This document shows positions 27,580-63,781 of a DNA stretch of 64,000 bases, in pieces. The stretch covers positions 20,313 through 84,312 of the forward strand of contig CALXJG010000001.1 in NCBI GenBank assembly GCA_944388565.1. The letters run 5' to 3'. This DNA comes from an uncultured Clostridia bacterium. Its GTDB lineage: Bacteria; Bacillota; Clostridia; TANB77; CAG-465. The position numbers and the translations under genes were made by a program. Within the stretch, counting starts at the first letter, position 1. Each line of letters begins with the position of its first letter. Below the pieces are notes generated by a model. That model saw only the letters and a program-made list of their open reading frames with translations, was not told the DNA's origin and ran no database searches.

Positions 27580-27626
27580 GAGTATGCTCTAAAATCAATA
27601 TTTGATTTAGAGCATATTCTTTATTT
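27580..27626. terminator. bidirectional terminator hairpin
   Basis: agagtatgctctaaa...tttagagcatattct 15-bp stem. Confidence 0.65.
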
Positions 27627-27845
27627 ACTGTTATTCATTTTTTCCCATTCTTTTAATTTCATCTTATATTCAAGTAACTGAGTTAAGTATCTGTAATACA
27701 TATACTGTTGTTCATAATACATTGCTGGATTAATTGGATTATCAATTGCAGGATTCATATCTTGTGGTGGCATATTTGTATTATGAGGAATATGTTGTTG
27801 CATAGTAAAATTATATGGGTCAAAAAAGTTTTGATTTTTATCCAT
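27621..27845 (-). CDS. small Q/P/N/Y-rich protein (possible spore-coat-like), 74 aa
   Basis: AGGAGG RBS 8 nt upstream of ATG on minus strand (27856-27851); composition-biased. Confidence 0.5.
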   Translation of the reverse strand: MDKNQNFFDPYNFTMQQHIPHNTNMPPQDMNPAIDNPINPAMYYEQQYMYYRYLTQLLEYKMKLKEWEKMNNSK

Positions 27846-27940
27846 TTAAAATACCTCCTAAAAATGTATAAAAAAATTATTTTGAGTTATAATACTAATG
27901 TAAACGTTTTAGTTTACCCCCCTTCTTTGATATTAGTAGT

Positions 27941-29119
27941 CTATTTTAATAGACTACTTTTATTTTTTTTTCTTTTTTTATTTATATATAGTATAATTCT
28001 ATATATCAAAAGAGAAAGGATAATAAGTAGTGTAGATATTAAATAGTAAAACTTCATATTAGAAAAATATGAATCTGTAACTTGACTTTCCTCAATATTT
28101 GAGAATACACTAACAGTTGTTACATCAGATATTGTTATAAACCTTAATAAAATATATGTAATAAAACATGAAATTATGCCATGAAAAACTTTTGGTATAA
28201 AAATATCTTTAAGTTTAAATTTAGATTCACAAACAGTTGAATATACTTGACATATTATGCATAATCCACTAAATCCAAGTGCAAATGAAGTAAGTAAAAT
28301 TTTAGCATTTAAATTAATTGACATGTTATTAATATTATGTGCACCTTTTGTAACTTCAAATATAGATGATATAAATTTAAGAATATTACTGTCTATATTT
28401 GCTTTGCTAGATATAGTAAATATAATATTAAATAAAAGATTAAATATGATTATAAAGCCTAAAATATTAGCAAGTGTTTTAAAGGCACTCAATATGGACA
28501 TTTTTATTATTTCAAAGGTAGATAAGTTTTTTAGCCTTTTATTTGTTTTTTCGTTAAAAGTATTTAAAAAATTAGTTTTTTCGTGTATAATATCATTATG
28601 ATATATTCTAGAATATATCACACCAATTAATATAGATGAAAATATATGTGATATAAGTAATATGATTCCAATTTGCATGTTATAAAATACGGCTATTCCC
28701 ACAGTAGATAGTATAAAAGCAGGATTACAATTATTTACAAAACTAAGTAGAACTTTGGCATCTCGTCTTGATATTTTATTTTGCATATATAATGTATTTA
28801 CCGTTTTTGAACCCATTGGGAAACCACATAGGAAACCTATAATAACCGCAGAGGTTGAGTTTTTATTTACTTTAAATACTTTGGATATAATGTTTCCAAA
28901 TATACGTGATAGGATATCAATTATATTAGTATGTAAAATTACTTCTGTAAAGAATATAAATGGAAACAGAGATGGAAGTACACTAGTTATAAAAATAATT
29001 ACACTGTCCTTTACTGATTCAAAATTTTGCTTTGACAGTATAAGTAATATAAGTAATGTAATTATAAATAGTATAAATTTTATTATATTTTTCATGTTAT
29101 ATGTTTTGTATAATTTCAT
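27941..29119 (-). CDS. polytopic membrane protein, YlbJ-like sporulation integral membrane protein (nucleoside-recognition/Gate domain family) candidate
   Basis: ~10 TM segments, size 392 aa; assignment by size/topology only. Confidence 0.4.
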   Translation of the reverse strand: MKLYKTYNMKNIIKFILFIITLLILLILSKQNFESVKDSVIIFITSVLPSLFPFIFFTEVILHTNIIDILSRIFGNIISKVFKVNKNSTSAVIIGFLCGFPMGSKTVNTLYMQNKISRRDAKVLLSFVNNCNPAFILSTVGIAVFYNMQIGIILLISHIFSSILIGVIYSRIYHNDIIHEKTNFLNTFNEKTNKRLKNLSTFEIIKMSILSAFKTLANILGFIIIFNLLFNIIFTISSKANIDSNILKFISSIFEVTKGAHNINNMSINLNAKILLTSFALGFSGLCIICQVYSTVCESKFKLKDIFIPKVFHGIISCFITYILLRFITISDVTTVSVFSNIEESQVTDSYFSNMKFYYLISTLLIILSLLIYRIILYINKKRKKNKSSLLK

Positions 29120-30029: not shown

Positions 30030-30033
30030 ATGA

Positions 30034-30063
30034 TAAACTCCCCAGATTTCTGGGGAGTTTAAA
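30034..30063. terminator. bidirectional terminator
   Basis: aaactccccaga-tttc-tggggagttt. Confidence 0.7.
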
Positions 30064-30064
30064 C

Positions 30065-30778
30065 TTACACTTTAAAGATTACTTCCTTTTTCCCGTTAAC
30101 ATATACAGAAATTTCAGAGCGAGTAATTCTCATGATTGTTTTCCACGGGAATAGCTCTACCGGAACATTGCAGTAATTAGCAACTTTTAAAAGAAGTTCT
30201 GTAGGACCATAGTCGCTGCAAAGGGAAGTGTTGCCGTAGCGTTCAATTTCGTTTTCAATTTCATTGGATAGCTTTTTTACAAACTCATTTAAGCTTTCTT
30301 CTGAAACGTTTGCATACTTTGCTCTAGCAACAGCAAGTTTGCTTAAAATGTCACTAGTATCAGATTTTTCACCATTGCTATATTTGGAAAAATCTGTTTC
30401 AAGTAGCCTATCTTTCCACCATTTTGCTGCAACTTCGCTATACTTCATTATGTTTTCCTCCTTGTAAAGTTTGTACTCTTTATATGAACAAGAAAAAATC
30501 TCTTGATCATTTACAGGTATGTCTAAGGCTTTTAATATTTCAATAGTACCAAGAGGTCCTATTCCTCTATATCCAGCACTTACATCTGTAATATAAAACC
30601 TAACATCTCCTGTTTGGATTTGTAAAGGATATGTCTTGGGATTATTTGGATTTATTTTACTTGCATCATAATTAATACAAGCTGTAATATTTCCTTTTTT
30701 TCCCCACCGATTGATAGCAGCTATTGCTCTTTTAACGCTGTCTTTTGTGTTTCCAGTTCTAATACTTATCTTTTGCAT
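30065..30778 (-). CDS. hypothetical two-domain protein; N-terminal ~100 aa paralogous to adjacent 113-aa protein
   Basis: ORF in compositionally distinct (GC-richer) segment; shared motif PL.I.T.D..F...D..AGY.G.GP.GT.E.LK.LD. Confidence 0.6.
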   Translation of the reverse strand: MQKISIRTGNTKDSVKRAIAAINRWGKKGNITACINYDASKINPNNPKTYPLQIQTGDVRFYITDVSAGYRGIGPLGTIEILKALDIPVNDQEIFSCSYKEYKLYKEENIMKYSEVAAKWWKDRLLETDFSKYSNGEKSDTSDILSKLAVARAKYANVSEESLNEFVKKLSNEIENEIERYGNTSLCSDYGPTELLLKVANYCNVPVELFPWKTIMRITRSEISVYVNGKKEVIFKV

Positions 30779-30791
30779 ATATAAATCCTTT

Positions 30792-31133
30792 CTATCTTCT
30801 AATTAACAGATTTGTAATACCATTTTCACGTCGCCGATAAATTTCATTTTCATCAAACGTCATGTCAAGGTATTTTAAAACTTCTACTGTTCCTTGTGGA
30901 CCGGTTCCACCATAACCAGCGGTACAATCTGCAAGGCAGAATACGTAGTCATCAGTGTATATCGTAAGCGGAAATGTTAAGGGATCTTGCTCGTAGGAGA
31001 TAAGTTCGTTTACATTGTAGTAAACCTTTGCATATCTAACTTTATCATTAGATAAACAAAGTTTTTTGAAAATCTCCATAAAAGATTTAATAGTTCTTTC
31101 AGTTGAACCTTCCATGATTGCAATTGTTTTCAT
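30792..31133 (-). CDS. hypothetical protein (113 aa), single-domain paralog of N-terminal domain of 30065-30778 product
   Basis: ORF; motif DCTAGYGGTGPQGTVEVLKYLD aligns to DVSAGYRGIGPLGTIEILKALD. Confidence 0.6.
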   Translation of the reverse strand: MKTIAIMEGSTERTIKSFMEIFKKLCLSNDKVRYAKVYYNVNELISYEQDPLTFPLTIYTDDYVFCLADCTAGYGGTGPQGTVEVLKYLDMTFDENEIYRRRENGITNLLIRR

Positions 31134-31322
31134 TTTACATCCTCCATAATTATATATTTGGTATAAAACAATACTATAAATATTATACCACTTTTCTTTA
31201 TTTATGTCAACAATAGTGATTAAAAGTATATTAAACAGAATGTTACATTAAATTGATTATATATACTATATTTTTATTTAATTTTATGATATAATAAAAA
31301 ATATTTTATTTGAGGTGGTTTT

Positions 31323-31862
31323 ATGAAATTATTATTAACCAGACATGGAGAAACAAATTGGAATAAAGAAGGAAAAATACAAGGTATAACAGATATAGAG
31401 TTAAATGATAATGGAAGAGAGCAAGCAATTAAAACTAGTGATAAGCTAAAAGATGAAGAAATTGACTTAATTCTTTCATCACCTTTAAAAAGAGCAAGAG
31501 AAACAGCTGAGATAATTTCAAAGAATAATAATATACCTATCATTATTTGTGATGAACTTAAAGAAAGAACTTTTGGAAACTTTGAAGGTAAAACTAAGTA
31601 TGATTTTAATTTTAAAGAAATATTTAATTATAAATTAAATGTTAATTACGAAGGTATTGAAAGTATGGGAGATTTATTTCATAGAGTGCATGGTTTTATC
31701 GAAAAAATAAAAGATGAATATGGTGAGAAAAATATATTACTTGTGACACATGGTGGAGTAGCTGTTGCAGTTAGAATATATTTTGAGGGGATTCCTGAAG
31801 GAATGGAAGTAATAGAAGGTTTTGGTATTAAAAATTGTGAAGTAATAAAATATGAAATATGA
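31323..31862 (+). CDS. histidine phosphatase family protein (phosphoglycerate-mutase-like)
   Basis: LLTRHGETNWN catalytic RHG motif. Confidence 0.8.
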   Translation: MKLLLTRHGETNWNKEGKIQGITDIELNDNGREQAIKTSDKLKDEEIDLILSSPLKRARETAEIISKNNNIPIIICDELKERTFGNFEGKTKYDFNFKEIFNYKLNVNYEGIESMGDLFHRVHGFIEKIKDEYGEKNILLVTHGGVAVAVRIYFEGIPEGMEVIEGFGIKNCEVIKYEI

Positions 31863-34605: not shown

Positions 34606-34698
34606 GAAATGGACATTTCAGGGATAATACCTTGAAATGTTTTTTTCTTTCCTTGACATGCAAACTAGTGTTTAGTATAATATATTTGAGGTAATAAT

Positions 34699-36960
34699 AT
34701 GAAAATTGCTAAAGTTTTGATTAATACGTCTGTAAAGAGTTTAAATAAAGTATATGATTATCTTGTGCCAGAAAAAATGGAACAGGATATTAAAATAGGT
34801 AAGCGAGTTTTAGTTTCATTTGGTAAAGGCAGAAGTGATGAAGAAGCAATAATTGTAAAAATAGAAGAAAAAACAGCTGAGGAATTAAAAAGTTATAATT
34901 ACAAGTTAAAGGAGATAATTGAGATTCTTGACGAAGTATCATATATAAATGAGTCAAGATTAAAGCTTGCAAAATATATTTCTTTTTTGTATTTTTGTAA
35001 TGTATATGATGCATTAAAGTTAATGTTACCTCCCGGTACAAAATCTAAAAATACCAAAAAAAGCTTAAATACTAAGCAAAATACGTTAGTAAAGCTTATA
35101 AAAAATCAAGAAGAGATTATGGAAGATATAGAAAATAATGTTATAACTAGTGCTAAACATATAAAACTATTAACTTTTTTAATGTACAATGATTATGTGT
35201 TAATAAATGATATTATCGATGGTTTAGAGATATCTAGACAGGTTATAAATACAGTAGAAAAAAATGGATATATTACTTTAGAAAAAGTGGACATAAAGCC
35301 AGATTTTTTAACAGAATTTAAAGTTTCACCTACAGAGCCTAAAAAGCCAACACCCGAACAAGAATTTGCAATTGATAGAATAAATAGTTATATAGATAGT
35401 AATGAATACAAACAATGTCTATTGTTTGGAGTAACTGGAAGCGGAAAAACTGAAGTGTATTTACAAGTAATAAAAAGAGTTTTGGAAAAAGGAAAAAGGG
35501 CAATAGTACTTGTTCCTGAAATTTCTCTTACTTACCAGACAGTTAATAGGTTTGTATCAAGATTTGGAAATAATATAGCAATTCTTCATAGTAAAATGAC
35601 AGTTTCTAAAAGAAAAGAAGAGTATAAAAGAATAAAAAATGGTGAAGTTGATATAATAATAGGAGCTAGATCTGCTATTTTTGCACCAGTTGATAATTTA
35701 GGTCTTGTAATTATAGATGAAGAACATGATGGAAGTTATTATTCTCAGACTACTCCTAAATATTCAACTAAAGAAGTTGCTTCATATATATGTAAAGAGA
35801 ATAATGCAACTTTAATACTTGGTTCTGCGACACCAGAAATATCATCATTTTATAAAGCACAAGCTGGTATAATGGATATAGTTACAATGGAAAATAGACC
35901 AGGTACTGCTGTTATGCCAAAAATTGAAATTGTAAATATGAAATATGATAGAGTTTTAGGAAATACCTCTGATATTAGCTTAAGATTAAAAGAAGAAATT
36001 AAGAAAAATATTGATAAAAATGAGCAGACGATGATATTTTTAAATAGAAGAGGATATCTTTCATATTTAAGATGTAATGAATGTTCGTATATATTTAAGT
36101 GCCCAAATTGTGATGTTGCTTTTGTTTATCATAAAACTAGTAATTTATTACATTGTCATTATTGTTCACATGTTGAAAGAAATGTACATAAATGTCCTTG
36201 TTGTGGAAGCGAAAATATATCTAGTAGTACAATTGGTACACAAAGGTTAGAAGAAGAATTAAAGGAAATATTTCCAGGAGTTACCACTTTAAGAATGGAT
36301 GCTGATACAACTGTTGCTAAAGATTCACATCAAAAAATATTAGATAAATTTAAAAATGAGAATATAAATATATTAATTGGGACACAAATGATAAGTAAAG
36401 GACATGATATTGAAAATGTTACCCTAGTTGGAATATTAGGTGTAGATACAATGCTTGGAATGGATGACTATTTGTCATCTGAAAGAGCTTTTTCAAATAT
36501 TTCACAAGTATCAGGAAGAGCTGGACGAGCAAAACTTCCAGGAAGAGTATTAATCCAAACTAATGATCCAGATAATTATATATTAAATGCAGTTATAAAT
36601 AATTCATATATTGAATTTTATGAAAAAGAGATTAAGCATAGAAAAAAATTTGGTTATCCTCCATTTATAGATATTGTGTTATTTGAGATAAGTGGAAGAA
36701 ATTTTTATTTAGTAAAGTCTGAAATAGATAGATTATACAATATTTTAAATAGTGAAAATACAGGTATATATAAAGTGTTTAATCCTAAGGCACCATTTAT
36801 ACAGAAAATTAATAATAAGTTTAGAGTTAATATAATTGTAAAGACTAAATTAAATACTAATAGTTATAATAAGTTATATGAGAAAATAAATATATTTAGT
36901 AAAACAAAGAAAAATGGCGTTAATATGGTAGTTACAAGAAACCCTATATTTATAGGATAG
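34699..36960 (+). CDS. priA: primosomal protein N' (replication restart helicase)
   Basis: Walker A GVTGSGKTEVY, DEEH, Cys-rich Zn-finger (CNECSY...CPNCD...CHYCSH...CPCCGS). Confidence 0.9.
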   Translation: MKIAKVLINTSVKSLNKVYDYLVPEKMEQDIKIGKRVLVSFGKGRSDEEAIIVKIEEKTAEELKSYNYKLKEIIEILDEVSYINESRLKLAKYISFLYFCNVYDALKLMLPPGTKSKNTKKSLNTKQNTLVKLIKNQEEIMEDIENNVITSAKHIKLLTFLMYNDYVLINDIIDGLEISRQVINTVEKNGYITLEKVDIKPDFLTEFKVSPTEPKKPTPEQEFAIDRINSYIDSNEYKQCLLFGVTGSGKTEVYLQVIKRVLEKGKRAIVLVPEISLTYQTVNRFVSRFGNNIAILHSKMTVSKRKEEYKRIKNGEVDIIIGARSAIFAPVDNLGLVIIDEEHDGSYYSQTTPKYSTKEVASYICKENNATLILGSATPEISSFYKAQAGIMDIVTMENRPGTAVMPKIEIVNMKYDRVLGNTSDISLRLKEEIKKNIDKNEQTMIFLNRRGYLSYLRCNECSYIFKCPNCDVAFVYHKTSNLLHCHYCSHVERNVHKCPCCGSENISSSTIGTQRLEEELKEIFPGVTTLRMDADTTVAKDSHQKILDKFKNENINILIGTQMISKGHDIENVTLVGILGVDTMLGMDDYLSSERAFSNISQVSGRAGRAKLPGRVLIQTNDPDNYILNAVINNSYIEFYEKEIKHRKKFGYPPFIDIVLFEISGRNFYLVKSEIDRLYNILNSENTGIYKVFNPKAPFIQKINNKFRVNIIVKTKLNTNSYNKLYEKINIFSKTKKNGVNMVVTRNPIFIG

Positions 36961-45426: not shown

Positions 45427-46287
45427 GTGAAAGAAAAGAAAGGAATAAGTCTAATAACATTAGTAATAACAATAATAGTAATAATAATCCTTGCAGCAGC
45501 AGTAATATTAACATTAAATAACAATAACCCAATAGAAAATGCAAAAGAAGCAACATTTAAATCAGATGTAAAAACATTACAATCAGAATTAACAATGTAT
45601 ATAGCAAAACAAACAGCAGATACATTAGGAGGATTTAAAGCAGAAGAATTAAACTTAAGTGAAACAACAACCCCAAAGATAGAAGAAATATTAACAAGTA
45701 TAAAAAGTAGTGGATTAGAAGGTAAAGTAGAAGTACAAAATGGAAAGTTAGTATATACAGGAACAATAGAAAAAGAAGAAAAATGGTTTAAAGAGATAAT
45801 GGGAGAAAGTGTAGTGACACCACCAGAAGAGGAAGATAAAATACCAATAGATAAAGAAACAGAAAAAATAGGATATTATGCAGATGTAGATGGAAATGGA
45901 ACCGTAGATGGAGTAATATATGCAGATTTAGCTTTTTCTAAAAGTGGGCAATGGACTAATGCAAATGGAGCATATTCTTACACAGCAAAAACAAATACAA
46001 AAGATTATTATATAAGTCAAACAAATTATAAAGGAGATTTTGGAACAAAAGATGTATTAACAGCAATAGATGGAGATGGAGAAGATAGATTTTATGTAAT
46101 GGCATTAAAATCATTTAATGATGGAAATGGATTAGAGTATTTTTGGTATGAAGATGCACATGGAAATATGAGTGATTATGCAACAGCGACTTCGATAGAC
46201 TTTGGAACTGGAAGAAGAAATACAGAGACAATGGTGAAAAAGTGGAATAATAGCGCATATGGTGCGCAAAATGCTGGTAAACGGTGA
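45427..46287 (+). CDS. pilin/pseudopilin-like protein with non-canonical class-III-like signal (MKEKKG/ISLITLVITIIVIIILAAAVI) and C-terminal DUF1566; reading frame broken (+1) near 46259-46287, continues 46259-46558
   Basis: GTG 45427 after AAGGAGG; hydrophobic N-terminal helix; frame-2 ORF 46259-46558 encodes GWFVPSRGEWGAF...YWSSSQYS...YVRLS DUF1566 signature. Confidence 0.55.
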   Translation: MKEKKGISLITLVITIIVIIILAAAVILTLNNNNPIENAKEATFKSDVKTLQSELTMYIAKQTADTLGGFKAEELNLSETTTPKIEEILTSIKSSGLEGKVEVQNGKLVYTGTIEKEEKWFKEIMGESVVTPPEEEDKIPIDKETEKIGYYADVDGNGTVDGVIYADLAFSKSGQWTNANGAYSYTAKTNTKDYYISQTNYKGDFGTKDVLTAIDGDGEDRFYVMALKSFNDGNGLEYFWYEDAHGNMSDYATATSIDFGTGRRNTETMVKKWNNSAYGAQNAGKR

Positions 46288-46558
46288 TATATATGACGCC
46301 TTAGATGTGTGGGGAGTAATCCAAAATAAAGTAGCAGAAGGTTGGTTTGTTCCATCAAGAGGTGAATGGGGAGCATTTGGAGATAATTTAAGAATAACAG
46401 AAAATAATTCATTACCCGGACTTACTTACAACTATTGGTCATCGTCTCAATATTCTGATGCTCTTGTGTGGTACATGAGGTCTAGTACTAGGGAGATGAG
46501 ATACTACGCAATAGGTACTAACGGCACATTTTATGTGCGTTTAAGTACAACTTTCTAA
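46259..46558 (+). pseudogene. DUF1566 C-terminal segment, out of frame (+1) relative to upstream pilin-like ORF
   Basis: DUF1566 hallmark W-VPS--EW.....YWSS.......W.........YVR..; lacks own RBS and N-terminal part of domain. Confidence 0.5.
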
Positions 46559-46582
46559 TTTTGTAAATATTTAAAAGTTAAG

Positions 46583-46612
46583 GAGTTAAAGTTTTTCTTT
46601 AACTCTTTTTTC
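46583..46612 (+). terminator. rho-independent terminator; also the likely target hairpin of the downstream group II intron
   Basis: gagttaaag-ttttt-ctttaactc + TTTTTT. Confidence 0.7.
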
Positions 46613-46613
46613 T

Positions 46614-48478
46614 GTATGATGGGCATGTCATAAATCTAGGGTGAAAGTCCCAAGAGACGTATTTGTCGCGAACTCAATAGCAACTTGCAAAGCATAAACC
46701 AGTAATGGAGTGTGAAAAGAAGCAATAGCGAAATCGTGGCTCTATGAATAAGAACTTGATATTAAGGCTTATTAGACGGATAAGTTGCCAGAATACAACG
46801 AAGTCCAAAAGACAAACGTAAATCTAATGAGTAAATCAAGAGAGTAAACGAGGAAAGAGTTATGGCTTATCCCATGAGGTCCTATAAACGAATCAGTAGT
46901 AACAACGAATTATAGGAAGTCAGCAGAGGTCATAGTAGGAACTATTATCCGAAGGACCGAACAATTTATAAGACTATGAAAATCTTGAAATCTCTTGCAA
47001 TTAATCAGAATAAATAAAGATGATAGGTTTAAGCGTATCTTAAATGGGTAATCCAAAAGATGGTATTGCAAGATAACGAAAAGAAAGGAAGTAGACAAGC
47101 TATGAAAGAAGATATTATTACAAAAATACTTGACCGAAACAATTTAAATGAGGCCTATAAAAATGTTAAAGCAAATAAAGGAGCAAGTGGAATTGACGAT
47201 TTATCAATTGAGGAAACAGCAGAATACATAAGACAAAATAAGGCTACCATTGTATGGCAATTGTATAATCGTAAATATCAACCACAGCCAGTGCGTAGAG
47301 TAGAAATACCAAAACCAAATGGTGGAATAAGGAAATTGGGTATACCAATAGTGCTAGACAGAATTATCCAGCAAGCAATGGTGCAAGTATTAGCTCCAAT
47401 GTTTGAACCATATTTTAGTGAATACAGTTATGGATTTAGACCAAAAAGAAGTTGTCAACAAGCTATAATTAAAGCACTAGAATACATGAACGACGGGTAT
47501 GAATGGATAGTAGACATTGACCTAGAGAAATTCTTTGATAATGTGCCACACGACAGATTATTAAGACTAGTAAGTGATGTAGTAAAAGATGGAAATGTAG
47601 TTTCATTGGTAAATAAATTTCTTAAAGCAGGAGTAATGATAAAAGGTAATTATGAAGAGACTACAATAGGAACACCACAAGGAGGACCTTTATCACCATT
47701 ACTATCAAATATTATGCTTAATTTACTAGATAAGGAATTAGAGGCAAGAAATTTACATTTTACAAGATATGCAGACGATACAATAATTTTAGTTAAAAGT
47801 GAAAAGGCAGCAAATAGAATAATGACATCAATAACAAAATTTATTGAAAATAAACTAAAACTAAAAGTTAATATAACAAAAACAAAAGTATGCACACCTT
47901 GGAATTTAAAATATCTAGGTTTTGGATTTTGCAAAATGAAGAAATGGGAATGTATACCCCATAAAGAAAGTAAAAAGAAATTTCAAAGAGCATTAAAACG
48001 ACTAACAAATAGAAGTAAAAATATGTCACTAGACAGAAGAATAGAACAATTAAATTGGACTATTAGAGGTTGGGTAAATTATTTTAGGATTGGAAAAATG
48101 AAGAAATTTCTAGAACGCACAGATGAACACTTACGTGCAAGAATTAGAGTAATTATTTGGAAACAGTGGAAAACACCAAAGACCCAAATAAAGAACCTAG
48201 TCAAATGTGGACTTTCACTAAATAATGCTAGAGGATTAGCCTATTGTAGAAGAGGATATACATTTGTAGCACATTCACAAATTTTGCAAACGGCTATTTC
48301 GAAAGAAAGACTACAAAAACCAAATAATAATCTAAAACGCAGAGGATTAGTCCTTGCTTTAGATTACTATCTAGCTTGAAATAAACTTATAAATTGAACC
48401 GCCCATTGCCGAACGGCACGATGTGGTGGTGTGAGAGGGGATGAAAATTTTATTTAATAAAATTTTCTACTCTACTCG
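46614..48478 (+). mobile_element. group II intron (bacterial class C-like, endonuclease-less IEP); boundaries approximate
   Basis: begins right after terminator T-run with gtatgatgggcatgtcataaatctAGGGTGaAAGTCccAAG (cf. Ll.LtrB 5' GTGCGCCCAGATAGGGTGTTAAGTCAAG); RT/maturase ORF in domain IV; candidate domain V 48399-48429 with CGC triad; perfect 11-bp hairpin 48443-48467. Confidence 0.75.
47102..48379 (+). CDS. group II intron reverse transcriptase/maturase (IEP), no HNH endonuclease domain
   Basis: RT motifs (GIDDLSIEE, PKPNGGIRKLGIP, FRPKRS, IVDIDLEKFFDN, GTPQGGPLSPLLSNI, YADD), domain X (RGWVNYFRIGKM); alternative ATG at 47060. Confidence 0.85.
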   Translation: MKEDIITKILDRNNLNEAYKNVKANKGASGIDDLSIEETAEYIRQNKATIVWQLYNRKYQPQPVRRVEIPKPNGGIRKLGIPIVLDRIIQQAMVQVLAPMFEPYFSEYSYGFRPKRSCQQAIIKALEYMNDGYEWIVDIDLEKFFDNVPHDRLLRLVSDVVKDGNVVSLVNKFLKAGVMIKGNYEETTIGTPQGGPLSPLLSNIMLNLLDKELEARNLHFTRYADDTIILVKSEKAANRIMTSITKFIENKLKLKVNITKTKVCTPWNLKYLGFGFCKMKKWECIPHKESKKKFQRALKRLTNRSKNMSLDRRIEQLNWTIRGWVNYFRIGKMKKFLERTDEHLRARIRVIIWKQWKTPKTQIKNLVKCGLSLNNARGLAYCRRGYTFVAHSQILQTAISKERLQKPNNNLKRRGLVLALDYYLA

Positions 48479-50652: not shown

Positions 50653-50813
50653 TAAAAATGAGTTGACATAAATATAAAAATGTGATATAATATATATTAG
50701 TAGTGATTGATGATTAGGATTTAAATAAAGACTAATGAAACAAACTAGCTAAAAGTTTATTTTTCTTTATTATCTTATTCATCTTTCTAAATATTATATA
50801 AAGGAGCGGCATT

Positions 50814-51650
50814 ATGGCAAAGAAGTATTTTAGCATTAGAGAGGCAATCCGTCTTGCAGAGTCCGGTATGACACGGCAGGAGCTGATTGAGTATTTTGGG
50901 CTTACAGAGTCCGAATACAAGAAAAAGTTTGCCAGCTTTTCTGAGGCAAACAGAAAGCGGCTTAAGTGTTTGCTTATTGCTGCAAGTGGTAAGAAAAAGA
51001 AGAAGCCGATTGAAAAACCGGTTATTCTGGAGGTAAACAAGAATAAAGAAGAAGTAATGGAGGTATGGGATACCTCATATATTCTCCATATTGCAAATCT
51101 TGAAGGGGATATGTCAAATGTAGTTATCCTTCCTGAGGTATACCAGCAGCTGGCGTATCACGAAAGGAGAGGAAATGGAAAGATTTGTCGTCTTTTCCAT
51201 ATGATCTTAGATGGAAGAGCTAAGGTAAACCTGGTAGCCGAATCTTTTGTCCCCGATAATGTCCCTAAGGATGAAGACCCGGCAGATTATGAGTTGTACG
51301 AGTATGTAAGACAGCATAAAAATACTGTTTTGTATACTTGCGATAAGTCACTTGCAATTAAGTGCCTTAGAGCAAATCTCCCTTATAAGTTTTTTAATAG
51401 GGGAGAGTATGGTACAAAAAGAGAAGAAGGACTGATTATAAGAAGGGGAAAGCTCTTTGGGGTCAATCCTAATCGAAAAGATGTCCTGGTGTTCGATAGA
51501 GCAAACAGGATTAAAAGAATGAACAAGCATTTTTTGATTCCTGTTCAGTACGGCGATATCGTCGTATGCGGAGATAAGACCTATATGGTCTTAAATTCAG
51601 AAGGAAAGATGGAGGAGATAGAAGGTAAAAAGAATAATAGGTTAGCGTAA
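50814..51650 (+). CDS. hypothetical protein of foreign composition; candidate PIN-like nuclease domain with N-terminal HTH-like segment
   Basis: much GC-richer than flanks; VWDTSYILHI...VVILPEVYQQL...YTCDKSLAIKCL resembles PIN motifs. Confidence 0.45.
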   Translation: MAKKYFSIREAIRLAESGMTRQELIEYFGLTESEYKKKFASFSEANRKRLKCLLIAASGKKKKKPIEKPVILEVNKNKEEVMEVWDTSYILHIANLEGDMSNVVILPEVYQQLAYHERRGNGKICRLFHMILDGRAKVNLVAESFVPDNVPKDEDPADYELYEYVRQHKNTVLYTCDKSLAIKCLRANLPYKFFNRGEYGTKREEGLIIRRGKLFGVNPNRKDVLVFDRANRIKRMNKHFLIPVQYGDIVVCGDKTYMVLNSEGKMEEIEGKKNNRLA

Positions 51651-51666
51651 CAACATTTAGCATCCA

Positions 51667-51710
51667 AAAGGCCACATATGTGTTTACATATGTGGTCAAT
51701 TTTTTTCTTT
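51667..51710. terminator. bidirectional terminator hairpin
   Basis: ggccacatatgt-gttt-acatatgtggtc + T-run. Confidence 0.65.
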
Positions 51711-52151
51711 TAAATATGCAATGGTAACTCCGTAACTTCCTTCAAAGTAATCTGCTAACTGGTATTTATCTATATATGGACTAGAACTTAAGTATTTATG
51801 AACTGCTTTTCTAAGAATTCCACCATGTCTACCATGTATAATTCTCACACGTTTTGCTCTATGAGCTATAGCATCACTAATGAATACATCAAGATTATAT
51901 AATGCTACTTCAACAGTTTGATGTCTAAGCATTATTTCTTCATTAAAATCATCACTGTTTAATGTATATTTTATATTAACATTATTTTTGTTATCTATTT
52001 TCTTGTTTGATAATCTAATTTTATCTTCACTAGTTTTTAAAATACTAGAGTTTGGAATTATCTTTATAGTATAGATATTATTATTTTTTCTTATTATTTT
52101 TCCAATTAAATTAGTATTAATAATTTCAACTAAATCTCCTATATTGTACAT
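51696..52151 (-). CDS. Smr-domain protein
   Basis: C-terminus LRHQTVEVALYNLDVFISDAIAHRAKRVRIIHGRHGGILRKAVHKYL matches Smr/MutS2 C-terminal nickase domain. Confidence 0.7.
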   Translation of the reverse strand: MYNIGDLVEIINTNLIGKIIRKNNNIYTIKIIPNSSILKTSEDKIRLSNKKIDNKNNVNIKYTLNSDDFNEEIMLRHQTVEVALYNLDVFISDAIAHRAKRVRIIHGRHGGILRKAVHKYLSSSPYIDKYQLADYFEGSYGVTIAYLKEKN

Positions 52152-52250
52152 AACAAAATTCCTTTCGCACTTATTATATCATAATTTAAATTATTTTACA
52201 ATTATATAAAAAAAGAGCGCCACTTTAATTTAAAGTGACACCCTATTTAA

Positions 52251-52976
52251 TTAAAAATCGTACTCGATGAACATAGCAGCCTCTTCTGTATTAAAGGTTT
52301 TTGTTTCTTTTAATACTAAGCCCTCGTCATAAATCTCCAATTCTGTAGGGGAATTCCAGACAAGGTAGTCATTGCGGTCTGTCCTAAAAATATACCACTT
52401 CCATTTTTTGAATACAAACTTACCACTATTAGTGTCTAATATATTATAATCAATATAATTCTCATCTCTAGCACCTAAAATCGCATAAGGATCAATTTCA
52501 TCTCCAATTAGGCTTAAATCCTCCTTAAAGAGAGGAGTGAAATTTGGAGATACAATGTTGTAGGTTTCTTCACGAGGCTTTTTTATAAGAATATTTCCAT
52601 TTTCACATATTCTCAAAGGTATAAAGTCATCAAGATTTTTCATAAGCTTAGTAACTTCAGTAAGTTCTCCACTTACATTCAGAAAAAACCAGTCTTCCTT
52701 TATTTTTAATGCTGCAATGAAGTCTTTCATATTCATTTCAACAATTTCGGTTGCGTTTATGCCCATAATAATGAAACCAAAACCTGCTTTATACACGGAG
52801 TGAGTATTATCATTCTTAATGATATAAACATAATCTTCATTATCTAAGAAGCAAGCGTAAATACATCCTAATATTAAAGTTTTAACTTTCCGAATGTAAT
52901 CAATGATGATTGTATTTCCATCAGCGTAATGGAATCCGAGAGTACCAATTGTGTTTCTTTTTTCGTTTGTCTTCAT
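52251..52976 (-). CDS. hypothetical protein (241 aa)
   Basis: ORF, moderately GC-enriched vs surroundings. Confidence 0.45.
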   Translation of the reverse strand: MKTNEKRNTIGTLGFHYADGNTIIIDYIRKVKTLILGCIYACFLDNEDYVYIIKNDNTHSVYKAGFGFIIMGINATEIVEMNMKDFIAALKIKEDWFFLNVSGELTEVTKLMKNLDDFIPLRICENGNILIKKPREETYNIVSPNFTPLFKEDLSLIGDEIDPYAILGARDENYIDYNILDTNSGKFVFKKWKWYIFRTDRNDYLVWNSPTELEIYDEGLVLKETKTFNTEEAAMFIEYDF

Positions 52977-53226
52977 GATGTAAACCCTCCTAAAGGTATA
53001 AATTATATTACTATTATAGCAAAAAAAAATATTTATGTCAAGTCTTCTGCTTAAAACATTTTAAGAACTAGTAAAAATAATTCAAATCTTATACATTTGG
53101 TATATAAAATATATTTTATTGTTATAAATACATTTCATCAAATTTTCACATTTAAACTATTTACAAATAATTATTTCTGTGTTAAAATATTTCCTATTGC
53201 AAAACATTATTTGCAGGAGGTAGGAT

Positions 53227-58094: not shown

Positions 58095-58306
58095 ATAAAA
58101 AGGGTAAAGGAGAATCATTTTTGATTCTCTTTTTAGTATATATAATTTTTTTATTATATATTTTGTTATTTTGTAGATATATAAATGAACATAATTAGTC
58201 GTATAATAATAGATATATTAAATATAATATTACTAAATAATATTTGACAAAATAAGTTATATAGAATATAATTTATACATATAAGATATGTTTAAAGGGG
58301 AAAGTA

Positions 58307-59446
58307 ATGAAAATAGAAGATAAAAAATTTGATTTTAAGTTTTTAAATTTCATGATGTACTTTGGTTTTGCTGTTGCAATATATTTTTTACTTAAAAATA
58401 TAGGTATGCTGGATAAAATAATAGAATCGATTGTTGCATTAACACCTGTTTTTTTAGGTATTATACTTTGTTGGATTTCAACACCACTTACAAATAAATT
58501 AAGAAAAATTGGACTTAGTAAAAATTTATCTGCCATATTATCTCTTATTTTAATATTTGGATTGATAATAGTTGTGTTTTCTATGATTGTTCCAATTTTT
58601 ATATCTCAGTTTAGCAATTTAATTAAAGATTTTCCTAGCATTTATGATGACATAGTAGATAAATTAAATCCATTTTTAAATGAAAATTTAAATATTGATG
58701 CAAATATAAAACATTTTAATGAAATAATATCAAAAGATATTATATTAGATAATTTAGATAATATACTTACTTATTCTATATCAACATTGCAAAGTGTATT
58801 TTCAGTTTTAGTTACTATAGGTACAACAATTGTAGTTTCTTTCTTTATGGTAAAAGATATGGATAAATTTAAAGAAAGAATAATTATGTTTTTTTCTAGA
58901 AATGGAAAAGGTGGAAAAACATATAAGATGTTATCAGAAATTGATGCTGCTGTAATGTCTTATGTTAAAGGAACAATACTTGATAGTATAATAGTTGGTA
59001 TTTTAACAACTATAGTTTGTTTGATATTAGGACTTGATTATGCAATTGTTTTTGGAATCCTTATAACTATATTAAATTTAATACCATATATAGGAGCTTT
59101 ACTTTCAGAATTAATAGTTGCCCTTTATGCTTTAACAGTAGGTGGCCCTATATTTGCTATAGTAACATTTGCTTGTTTACTTCTTGTACAAATAATTGAT
59201 GCTAATATATTACAACCAAATATAATAGGTAAATCTGTAAATTTACATCCAGTTGTCGTAATTGGTGGACTTATTGTATTTAATCTTTTGTTTGGAATTG
59301 TTGGTATGATAATTGCTATGCCAATACTTGCAATACTTAAAATAATAATTGAATATAAATTTAGTGTTCAATTTGATGAAATAGAGACAAAAGAGGATAT
59401 AGCAAAAAACAAGAAAATTCTAAAAGCAAAAAGTAAGGAAAAGTAA
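58307..59446 (+). CDS. AI-2E family transporter (PerM/YhhT-like)
   Basis: 8 TM topology, conserved IPYIGALLS... region, size 379 aa. Confidence 0.75.
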   Translation: MKIEDKKFDFKFLNFMMYFGFAVAIYFLLKNIGMLDKIIESIVALTPVFLGIILCWISTPLTNKLRKIGLSKNLSAILSLILIFGLIIVVFSMIVPIFISQFSNLIKDFPSIYDDIVDKLNPFLNENLNIDANIKHFNEIISKDIILDNLDNILTYSISTLQSVFSVLVTIGTTIVVSFFMVKDMDKFKERIIMFFSRNGKGGKTYKMLSEIDAAVMSYVKGTILDSIIVGILTTIVCLILGLDYAIVFGILITILNLIPYIGALLSELIVALYALTVGGPIFAIVTFACLLLVQIIDANILQPNIIGKSVNLHPVVVIGGLIVFNLLFGIVGMIIAMPILAILKIIIEYKFSVQFDEIETKEDIAKNKKILKAKSKEK

Positions 59447-63202: not shown

Positions 63203-63781
63203 TTACTTATCTATAGATAAAGGCAATAACTCATTTAACACATTTTCGATTCTATCACAAAATTTTGCAAGTCCAATCTTTGTTACCTTTGAATAGTTCT
63301 TTGAAATTGCATCAAGAACTGTGTAGATTTGAAATTCAAAATGTTGCAAAAAGTAAAGCGGAACATCTGTTTTGCTCTCCAGCAACCGTTCTAAATCTCT
63401 TTTGTTTTCTACTTTTTTTATAGCAGCAAGTAATCTGAACAATTTGCCAAGATCGCCTCTTAGGCAACTTCTGGTATTAATGATATCAATACTATCCAAA
63501 GCTTTTTTCATTTCCAGAAACGAAATTATATCAGAATAAGAATAGTTTGTAATAGACCTAAAAAGATTAAATTCTCTAACGATATCTTCAAGACTGTATT
63601 TTATCATTAATTCTGATGGAGAAGCAATATTGCAAGTATTATTCGAAGCCTTACTATTTTCTATAGCTTTTTTAATACTCTTTACCTCTTCAATTTGCCG
63701 TTCTGTTTCTTCTATGCTAAGGGTTGCTTTTTCGATTTTTTGTGTAATGAAGTCCTTAAAAATTTGTACTGTTCTTTCCAC
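63203..63781 (-). CDS. hypothetical protein (192 aa)
   Basis: ORF; no recognisable domain. Confidence 0.4.
   Translation of the reverse strand: MERTVQIFKDFITQKIEKATLSIEETERQIEEVKSIKKAIENSKASNNTCNIASPSELMIKYSLEDIVREFNLFRSITNYSYSDIISFLEMKKALDSIDIINTRSCLRGDLGKLFRLLAAIKKVENKRDLERLLESKTDVPLYFLQHFEFQIYTVLDAISKNYSKVTKIGLAKFCDRIENVLNELLPLSIDK

Follow-up and report, generated by a model that had tools for sequence, protein, structure and literature searches.

A strain-variable two-gene cassette of uncultured gut Clostridia that pairs a glycine-loop domain with a predicted BTG/Tob-fold domain

How does a pair of small minus-strand genes with raised GC (guanine plus cytosine) content come to lie between the housekeeping genes of a low-GC gut bacterium, and what might its proteins do? 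The question arises at positions 30065 to 31133 of a 64,000-nucleotide (nt) stretch of contig CALXJG010000001.1 from an uncultured Clostridia bacterium (the window; positions below are window positions, with position 1 as its first letter), where an initial annotation had described a foreign islet carrying tandem paralogs of an unassigned domain and had suggested an immunity, antitoxin or small defence cassette. The two open reading frames (ORFs) are present exactly where that annotation placed them, and they encode a short protein of 113 amino acids (aa) and a long protein of 237 aa that do share a domain, with 33% identity between the short protein and residues 1-95 of the long one in a BLASTP comparison (E=2e-16), including the AGY-G-GP-GT motif. 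A profile of the N-family, the relatives of this shared N-domain, matches the N-domain of the long protein at E=2e-28. We find that the cassette formed by these genes is a strain-variable accessory islet whose alleles are much older than their surroundings, that the C-domain of the long protein is predicted to have the BTG/Tob fold, and that both domain families have relatives on mobile elements. Tentatively, and with a chance that we place a little below even, we read the cassette as a long-resident, strain-variable, mobile-element-derived accessory locus encoding binding proteins involved in host-element conflict.

A variable site between a methyltransferase gene and rpoZ

The cassette genes are not ubiquitous core genes, as homologues are very rare: among 5.8 billion proteins, full-length relatives formed three clusters for the long protein and five for the short one, and all of them lie at one site, which extends from an rRNA-methyltransferase-like gene (Methyltrans_SAM) to rpoZ or to a histidine-phosphatase gene. 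The hosts are metagenome-assembled genomes and 'Clostridium sp. CAG:921/465/389/440', which are uncultured low-GC gut Clostridia, and the closest reference species shows 87% identity in the flanking methyltransferase. The cargo differs from contig to contig, being 113+237 aa in the window and L001, 114+230 aa in L002, 113+244 aa in L005, 114+232+102 aa in L007, a lone 119-aa gene in L008-L010 and a lone 116-aa gene in L011, so that a long gene is always accompanied by a short one, whereas the short or lone form does occur by itself. A further family member, P0011 (139 aa, in L091), adjoins a methyltransferase gene of the same type. The third ORF of L007 (5290-5598, 102 aa, 3' of the long gene) was considered as an extra paralog together with ORFs at L005 4831-5172 and L092 1718-2080, and all three were rejected, none of them matching the N- or C-family hidden Markov model (HMM); the L007 and L092 ORFs also gave no match when scanned against Pfam.

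The empty site that the initial annotation had proposed to look for in relatives exists in nine related reference species, in which rpoZ starts 62-116 bp after the methyltransferase gene, and three other species hold unrelated cargo between methyltransferase and rpoZ, which makes this junction a recurrent insertion point. Unrelated cargo in other genera comprises a 360-aa membrane protein (L017 5655-6737), a 307-aa multi-pass membrane protein (L035 6922-7845) and a 144-aa gene fragment (L022 1640-2074). The polymorphism extends into a single species, because in the same-species contigs L008-L010 the flanks are 96-99% identical to the window, homology ends at 30037 and returns at 31257, and 215 bp between these points align at 68%; at base level the break starts directly behind the methyltransferase stop codon and ends shortly before the histidine-phosphatase promoter. 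Taken with an atypical base composition, the empty sites, alternative cargo and sharp breakpoints show the locus to be a strain-variable accessory islet. Variation in the neighbourhood also concerns the histidine-phosphatase gene itself (31323-31862, 179 aa), which the window and L008-L010 carry, for which L001 has a 333-aa gene with a His_Phos_1 match at the same position, and which is absent in L002, L005, L007, L011 and the empty-site species, where rpoZ follows directly. On the other side, L001 carries an insertion of ~2 kb (L001 5157-6948) relative to the window near 27600, with two orphan genes (206 and 376 aa) that have no Pfam match. Its Gate-domain membrane gene (window 27600-29119) has 73-85% nucleotide identity, against ~99% in the adjacent methyltransferase; this is a second mosaic segment in the cassette neighbourhood.

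Both cassette genes are under purifying selection, with dN/dS (nonsynonymous to synonymous divergence) of 0.09-0.13 for the short gene and 0.12-0.18 for the long gene, and their alleles are much older than the surrounding DNA. In the comparison of the window with L001, synonymous divergence (dS) is 0.047 in the methyltransferase gene, 0.41 in the short gene and 1.02 in the long gene; with L008 it is about 0.055 in the flanks, and in the short gene the proportion of synonymous differences (pS) reaches 0.85, which is saturated. Overall, the cassette alleles have diverged 9-22 times as far at synonymous sites as the flanks. In a tree of N-domains, those of the long genes form one clade (100/100 bootstraps) and the short plus lone genes form another (78/100), with all genes at this site jointly monophyletic in only 4/100 replicates. 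The long-gene N-domain is a separate deep clade, and the two proteins are therefore distant paralogs; the local duplication implied by the term tandem paralogs in the initial annotation is not borne out. Both clades repeat the same branching, (W,L001) and (L002,L007) and then L005, where W is the window, and the pair has therefore been inherited as a unit. In the window's own species, the lone allele branches off below those short genes of other species that have a long partner. These results agree with an exchange of alleles by way of the conserved flanks, or with alternative alleles having been retained over long periods. Since every carrier has the cassette at the same site and its alleles have co-diverged to synonymous saturation, it is not a recent import; the islet that the initial annotation had proposed is thus real, with empty sites and alternative cargo, and the recent arrival that foreign composition might imply is not.

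The raised GC content noted at first sight holds up on calculation. The GC content of the 1069-bp segment is 0.337, where the window as a whole averages 0.273 (z=2.3, within the top 2.9% of equal-sized windows), and the difference sits at third codon positions, where GC (GC3) is 0.256 and 0.272 in the two genes compared with a mean of 0.148 (standard deviation 0.062) for 53 window genes; the pair ranks fourth and fifth, ~2 standard deviations above the mean, and neighbouring genes have about half its values (0.12-0.18). Every allele in every lineage has a GC3 of 0.26-0.36, with 0.09-0.22 in the flanks, so the high GC3 is not the fading trace of a recent import. The largest shift concerns C in two-fold NNY codons (0.35-0.37 versus a background of 0.105), G in NNR codons is 0.20-0.30 versus 0.158, and C and G at four-fold sites are 2-4 times higher than in the background. 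The NNY shift, together with a perfect promoter, suggests codon adaptation to high expression, and the NNR and four-fold shifts point to a distinct mutational history; expression bias and mutational history are inseparable here, since the window lacks a set of highly expressed genes against which codon usage could be compared. Promoter strength was rejected as the sole cause, as two other genes with perfect consensus promoters (promoters 34653-34681 and 58244-58272; genes 34699-36960 and 58307-59446) have ordinary GC3.

Two domain families with relatives on mobile elements

The long protein was modelled with AlphaFold2 from an alignment of 89 sequences, giving a mean predicted local distance difference test score (pLDDT) of 91, with 93-98 in the C-domain; this run replaced an earlier one with 6 sequences, which had reached a pLDDT of 60 and left the C-domain unreliable. 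The N- and C-families were aligned separately, and a joint MAFFT alignment, in which N-only rows were stacked on C-domain columns, was discarded. The C-domain, described in the initial annotation as W-rich and helical, turns out in the model to be alpha/beta, with five helices and four strands, and Foldseek placed only BTG/Tob structures among its top ten matches in the PDB (Tob-Caf1, Tob1, BTG2, TIS21 and FOG-3). The order of the elements matches the published BTG2 topology (PMC2588512), with a helical bundle followed by four strands and a helix between strands 1 and 2. The sequences differ much more, at 10-16% identity. Pfam BTG (PF07742) is matched by 5/40 C-family members in the sub-threshold range (best E=1.8e-5), the window long protein stays below the curated threshold and has no match to it at E<=1, and a search of PDB sequences gave no match for the window proteins. 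The C-family profile, by comparison, finds BTG2 as its best match among PDB sequences over nearly the whole domain (E=0.087), and hhalign aligns the two in the same register (E=6.7e-4, probability 27%), placing the FPWKT.M.I...V.V pattern of the C-family on box B, whose BTG2 counterpart is LPSELTL. Among 89 C-family members, P211 and M216 of the FPWKTIM block and A117, W120 and W121 of the AAKWW block are nearly invariant, and the conserved residues in general are hydrophobic, aromatic, Pro or Gly. On the basis of the model, we assign the predicted BTG/Tob fold to the C-domain of the long protein, from whose eukaryotic namesakes it departs in the conserved AA.WW helix and F.NGD block, which are specific to the prokaryotic family, and in its fusion behind an unrelated N-domain.

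Relatives of the C-domain are numerous. Residues 115-225 of the long protein match the PHROGs family phrog_8937 ('unknown function') at E=1.8e-7, and an exhaustive profile search gave 377 C-family clusters; ~120 of the best 150 are stand-alone C-domain proteins of ~130 aa. Toutatis AUV56739.1 is one of the stand-alone members from phages. Twenty-nine IMG/VR viral contigs with GC contents of 27-71% carry a member, and the neighbouring genes there encode integrases, Erf-type and other recombinases, NinI-like phosphatases, regulators, anti-repressors and replication proteins. Members also occur in Faecalibacterium phages and, within a run of small hypothetical genes, on C. botulinum plasmids. The fusion of N- and C-domains was found only in the clade of the window (P0003, P0009 and the loci at the methyltransferase site). 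Other domain combinations exist: seven proteins of ~250 aa (P0051, P0058, P0076, P0086, P0095, P0121 and P0142) have an unnamed ~120-aa N-terminal module without a Pfam match before the BTG/Tob-like domain, P0056 and P0120 combine that domain with DUF4116 repeats, and P0151 combines it with a DpnD/PcfM domain. One candidate, P0145 (549 aa), in which the motif region matched eight times, was excluded as unrelated repetitive sequence.

The N-domain belongs to a smaller family of 34 clusters that no source names and no Pfam family covers. The PHROGs family phrog_19231 ('unknown function') matches the short protein at E=1.7e-4, the long protein at E=0.0095 and 25/33 N-family members (best 5e-9). 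The nearly invariant positions are Y39, P55, G73, G76, G78, P79 and L86 in short-protein numbering, with G73 invariant and G76, G78 and P79 nearly invariant among 33 members; in the loop of the long protein, G69, Y70, G72, G74, P75, G77 and T78 are invariant. These positions offer no candidate catalytic residues, and because the near-invariant residues are only Y, P, G, G, G, P and L, the N-domain is apparently non-enzymatic. The model of the long protein places strand 2-8, helix 11-25 and strands 31-36, 52-56 and 59-67 before the glycine loop, and helices 75-84 and 91-96 and strand 99-104 after it, so that the loop lies between strand 59-67 and helix 75-84. The structural search proposed by the initial annotation, which yielded a fold for the C-domain, returned no convincing neighbour of the N-domain among solved structures. 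High-GC proteins also contain the half of the domain that bears the motif (L.L.GCTAGYGGEGPHGTL.VLR..GF), in one case fused to a LexA-type DNA-binding domain.

N-family members are found in the accessory part of an actinobacterial conjugative element, on Bacillus and Peribacillus plasmids and in a Bacillus phage; a pattern built on a tighter subset of the family gave 6 metagenome loci and nothing in viral contigs. In low-GC Firmicutes, lone N-family genes lie between two housekeeping genes that both run in the opposite direction, either a MiaB-type and an FtsY gene or a patatin and an Na/Ca exchanger gene, and in five loci of another low-GC lineage (L092, L124, L125, L129 and L134) the lone gene occupies a conserved site on the opposite strand between a MiaB/RimO-type radical-SAM gene and ftsY. 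In L092 an unannotated 120-aa ORF precedes it. The phage, plasmid and conjugative-element relatives, as judged from sequence, fit a mobile-element ancestry of the cassette.

Organisation of the operon and other outliers of the window

Within the unit the order is promoter, ribosome-binding site (RBS), short gene, 13-nt spacer, long gene and hairpin (Table 1), and the short and long genes read as one operon, which is transcribed in the direction opposite to the genes on either side; the flanking genes encode the methyltransferase, the histidine phosphatase, RpoZ and a cytidylate-kinase-like protein. Perfect consensus promoters number 5 in 64 kb, compared with 0.08 expected, and the cassette promoter scores 12/12 in six and 11/12 in two of the 8 alleles at the site, with a distance of 48-58 nt to the start codon in all 8 and a GGAGG-type RBS in all cassette alleles. 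These features indicate an autonomous operon, probably with strong and constitutive transcription. The hairpin folds at -21.3 kcal/mol (z=-5.7) and has a T-tail too short for the terminator rule of the prediction tool; it is a probable bidirectional terminator common to the cassette and the methyltransferase gene. The same hairpin occurs in the window, L001, L002 and L007, and different hairpins occur in L005, L008 and L011. The initial annotation had placed a bidirectional terminator at each end, of which only this left one is supported, since the AT-rich region on the right (31140-31320) holds instead the cassette's own promoter and that of the histidine-phosphatase gene.

Table 1. Coordinates of the cassette and its parts in the window
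Feature	Position	Strand	Description
Variable segment (islet)	30030-31259		just after methyltransferase stop codon to just before histidine-phosphatase promoter
Promoter TTGACA, 17-nt spacer, TATAAT with extended -10 TG	31182-31210	minus	12/12 matches
RBS GGAGGA	31140-31145	minus	6 nt before short-gene ATG; from sequence
Short gene	30792-31133	minus	113 aa, N-domain only; ORF
Glycine-rich loop AGYGGTGPQGT of short protein	30888-30920	minus	residues 72-82
Intergenic spacer	30779-30791	minus	13 nt, weak RBS AAGGA; from sequence
Long gene	30065-30778	minus	237 aa, N-domain plus predicted BTG/Tob-fold C-domain; ORF
N-domain of long protein	30464-30778	minus	residues 1-105; aligns to short protein
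Glycine-rich loop AGYRGIGPLGT of long protein	30545-30577	minus	residues 68-78
C-domain of long protein	30065-30445	minus	residues 112-237; predicted BTG/Tob (APRO) fold; phrog_8937 member
AAKWW block	30416-30430	minus	residues 117-121; first helix of C-domain
FPWKTIM block	30131-30151	minus	residues 210-216; aligned with BTG box B
Hairpin AAACTCCCCAG-ATTT-CTGGGGAGTTT	30037-30063		palindrome, RNA fold

Several other parts of the window stand out in composition or content. The stretch 46259-48379 contains a group II intron, whose RNA domains (46696-46957; Rfam RF02001 at 100 bits and RF01998) precede its reverse-transcriptase/maturase ORF (47060-48379; RVT_1, GIIM), and, just upstream of the intron, a 99-aa ORF at 46259-46558 with a GC3 of 0.32 and no Pfam match. 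A possible second islet at 50663-53041 is framed by two inward-facing perfect promoters (50663-50691, plus strand; 53013-53041, minus strand), both of which start TTGACATAAATA, like the cassette promoter, and it contains two orphan ORFs without Pfam matches, 50814-51650 (278 aa, GC3 0.41) and 52251-52976 (241 aa, GC3 0.30). The minus-strand ORF at 63203-63781 (192 aa, GC3 0.25, no Pfam match) is a further compositional outlier.

Possible function and comparison with known systems

Under the reading as a conflict-related accessory locus, the short protein, which consists of an N-domain only, and the N-domain of the long protein would associate with one another, an anionic ligand or partner might bind to the glycine loop, which lies at the N-terminus of a helix, and the BTG/Tob-like domain, by analogy of fold, could serve as an adaptor between proteins, capturing or blocking a partner enzyme that may be a nuclease. 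The result would matter in the conflict between the host and phages or plasmids, which could keep old, divergent alleles in circulation. Because every long gene has a short partner, whereas the short form often stands alone, it is suggested that the fusion protein acts together with the free N-domain protein or under its control. A more specific version, in which the cassette is a new two-component conflict module whose glycine-loop domain, both free and as a sensor or dimerisation part, controls a BTG/Tob-type adaptor that captures or inhibits a nuclease or another enzyme, belonging either to the host or to an invading element, seems to us rather improbable.

A number of observations weigh against the conflict reading. 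Searches of Pfam and NCBIfam gave no match for either window protein, PADLOC-DB v2 contained no family matching either of them at E<=1, and no experiment or known homologue assigns a function to either domain. The cassette has housekeeping flanks only, with no defence, toxin, integrase or transposase gene adjoining it. Many N-family genes occupy conserved chromosomal sites, which a host function fits equally well, and codon bias linked to expression, as opposed to a foreign origin, may explain the elevated GC3. No N-family gene lies within 6 kb of the C-family gene in the 29 viral loci, and since the families do not co-occur there, the N+C fusion is not backed by a conserved neighbourhood. The adaptor analogy meets two difficulties of its own. 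In BTG2, residues Y65, W103 and D105 are critical for CAF1 binding (PMC2588512), and the window protein has N, R and T at the aligned positions, so that it shares the predicted fold and not the CAF1 interface, with GY and W at CAF1-critical positions in some other C-family members; furthermore, the bacterial and phage hosts have neither CCR4-NOT nor poly(A)-binding protein. The analogy with an adaptor is therefore drawn from the fold, and as CCR4-NOT is lacking in bacteria, any partner of the C-domain would be another protein.

The suggestion of an immunity, antitoxin or defence function in the initial annotation found no support, although it is not refuted either, as neither protein has a PADLOC, Pfam or NCBIfam match, no toxin is encoded nearby and the short gene is often alone. 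Immunity to a polymorphic toxin in particular would be expected to leave other traces than those seen here, where there is no adjacent toxin, no array of immunity genes and no Pfam Imm match. A toxin-antitoxin-like pair, in which the long protein inhibits growth and the short paralog neutralises it by pairing or competition of N-domains, can draw on the operon order of short gene then long gene with 13 nt between them, a long gene that never lacks its short partner while the short form may occur alone, two clades that co-diverge as a unit, old alleles at a strain-variable locus, and relatives on phages and plasmids. We nevertheless consider it improbable, since known toxin folds and conserved catalytic residues are absent from both proteins, the short protein offers no DNA-binding domain through which the operon could regulate itself (no helix-turn-helix, ribbon-helix-helix or AbrB-type match), and the perfect, constitutive-type promoter shows no evident operator. 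The C-family, moreover, consists mostly of stand-alone phage proteins without a nearby N-family partner, which argues against intrinsic toxicity, and purifying selection conserves lone N-family genes at several places in the chromosome, so that the short protein should have a function of its own.

That the genes instead belong to the host, as lineage-specific and fast-evolving components of RNA- or translation-related physiology or of sporulation, with a GC3 that reflects codon adaptation to strong expression, is on balance unlikely, though several observations speak for it. All relatives have the genes at one chromosomal position between core genes, mobility genes are absent from the surroundings, selection is purifying, and a perfect promoter and strong RBS are kept in all alleles; the largest component of the GC3 shift, toward C in two-fold NNY codons, is typical of translational selection, and distant N-family genes adjoin genes of MiaB, FtsY and rRNA-methyltransferase type. 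Such genes would not be expected to vary in presence and cargo inside one species, to be missing from the site in nine related species, to exceed their flanks 9-22 times in synonymous divergence with an allele tree incongruent with flank similarity, or to have relatives of both domains on phages, plasmids and a conjugative element, and translational selection does not predict the 2-4 fold rise in four-fold G and C or the rise of G in NNR codons; the two ordinary-GC3 genes behind perfect promoters point the same way. A domesticated and now drifting remnant ('moron') of genes with which a phage or plasmid counters defence or takes over its host, with no host function left, would account for the presence of both families in early or accessory stretches of phage and plasmid genomes, and for a unit with its own promoter and terminator and an orientation opposite to its neighbours. 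It is a very unlikely explanation here, because dN/dS values of 0.09-0.18 and a promoter that has been kept despite saturated divergence indicate continued selection on the chromosome, and no prophage or plasmid remnants flank the cassette.

The comparison with BTG/Tob proteins has consequences beyond this locus. These proteins are regarded as an animal family, extending to Dictyostelium, that adapts the CAF1 deadenylase (PMC2837350, PMC12746107), and the 2008 paper on the BTG2 structure reported no other neighbours of the fold (PMC2588512). In the searchable literature, whose coverage is incomplete so that a prior report is possible, we found no description of prokaryotic or phage BTG-like domains. 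The C-family, which comprises at least a few hundred clusters at 50% identity in phages, plasmids and Firmicutes and is unnamed in Pfam, combines a predicted BTG/Tob fold with faint sequence similarity. If the assignment is true, the animal proteins have a large unnoticed family of relatives in phages and plasmids, which might reflect either a mobile-element origin or a very old adaptor fold, and a tractable bacterial or phage system would be available for finding out what an ancestral BTG/Tob adaptor binds; the C-family is also marked for functional study as a widespread phage accessory protein. The N-domain, with a near-invariant AGYxGxGPxGT, is conserved on mobile elements from Clostridia to Actinobacteria, and the locus provides a clear natural case in which alleles replace one another at a fixed hotspot of the chromosome in a lineage of uncultured gut bacteria.

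With type II toxin-antitoxin loci the cassette has in common two genes for small proteins with the short one first, strain variability, relatives on mobile elements and a downstream gene never found without the upstream gene; it differs in that neither a known toxin fold nor a known antitoxin fold is present, the upstream protein lacks a DNA-binding domain and searches of PADLOC and Pfam gave no match, as well as in the paralogy of its two proteins and the widespread occurrence of the upstream gene alone. Like members of phrog_8937 and phrog_19231, its products are related to small proteins of early or accessory phage regions, with the difference that the two modules are separate and non-neighbouring in phages and are here fused and, on the chromosome, paired with a second N-domain gene. 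The early regions of phages and the leading regions of plasmids and of integrative and conjugative elements encode small anti-defence and host-takeover proteins, including modular 'polyvalent' ones with DpnD/PcfM-type modules. To our knowledge, no anti-defence activity has been described for either family. The cassette proteins nonetheless resemble this group in being small, non-enzymatic and modular, in the fusion of the C-domain to DpnD/PcfM, DUF4116 and other modules, and in having relatives in runs of small hypothetical genes; what sets the cassette apart is that it is chromosomal, flanked by housekeeping genes, stably held at a single site and equipped with a consensus promoter of its own.

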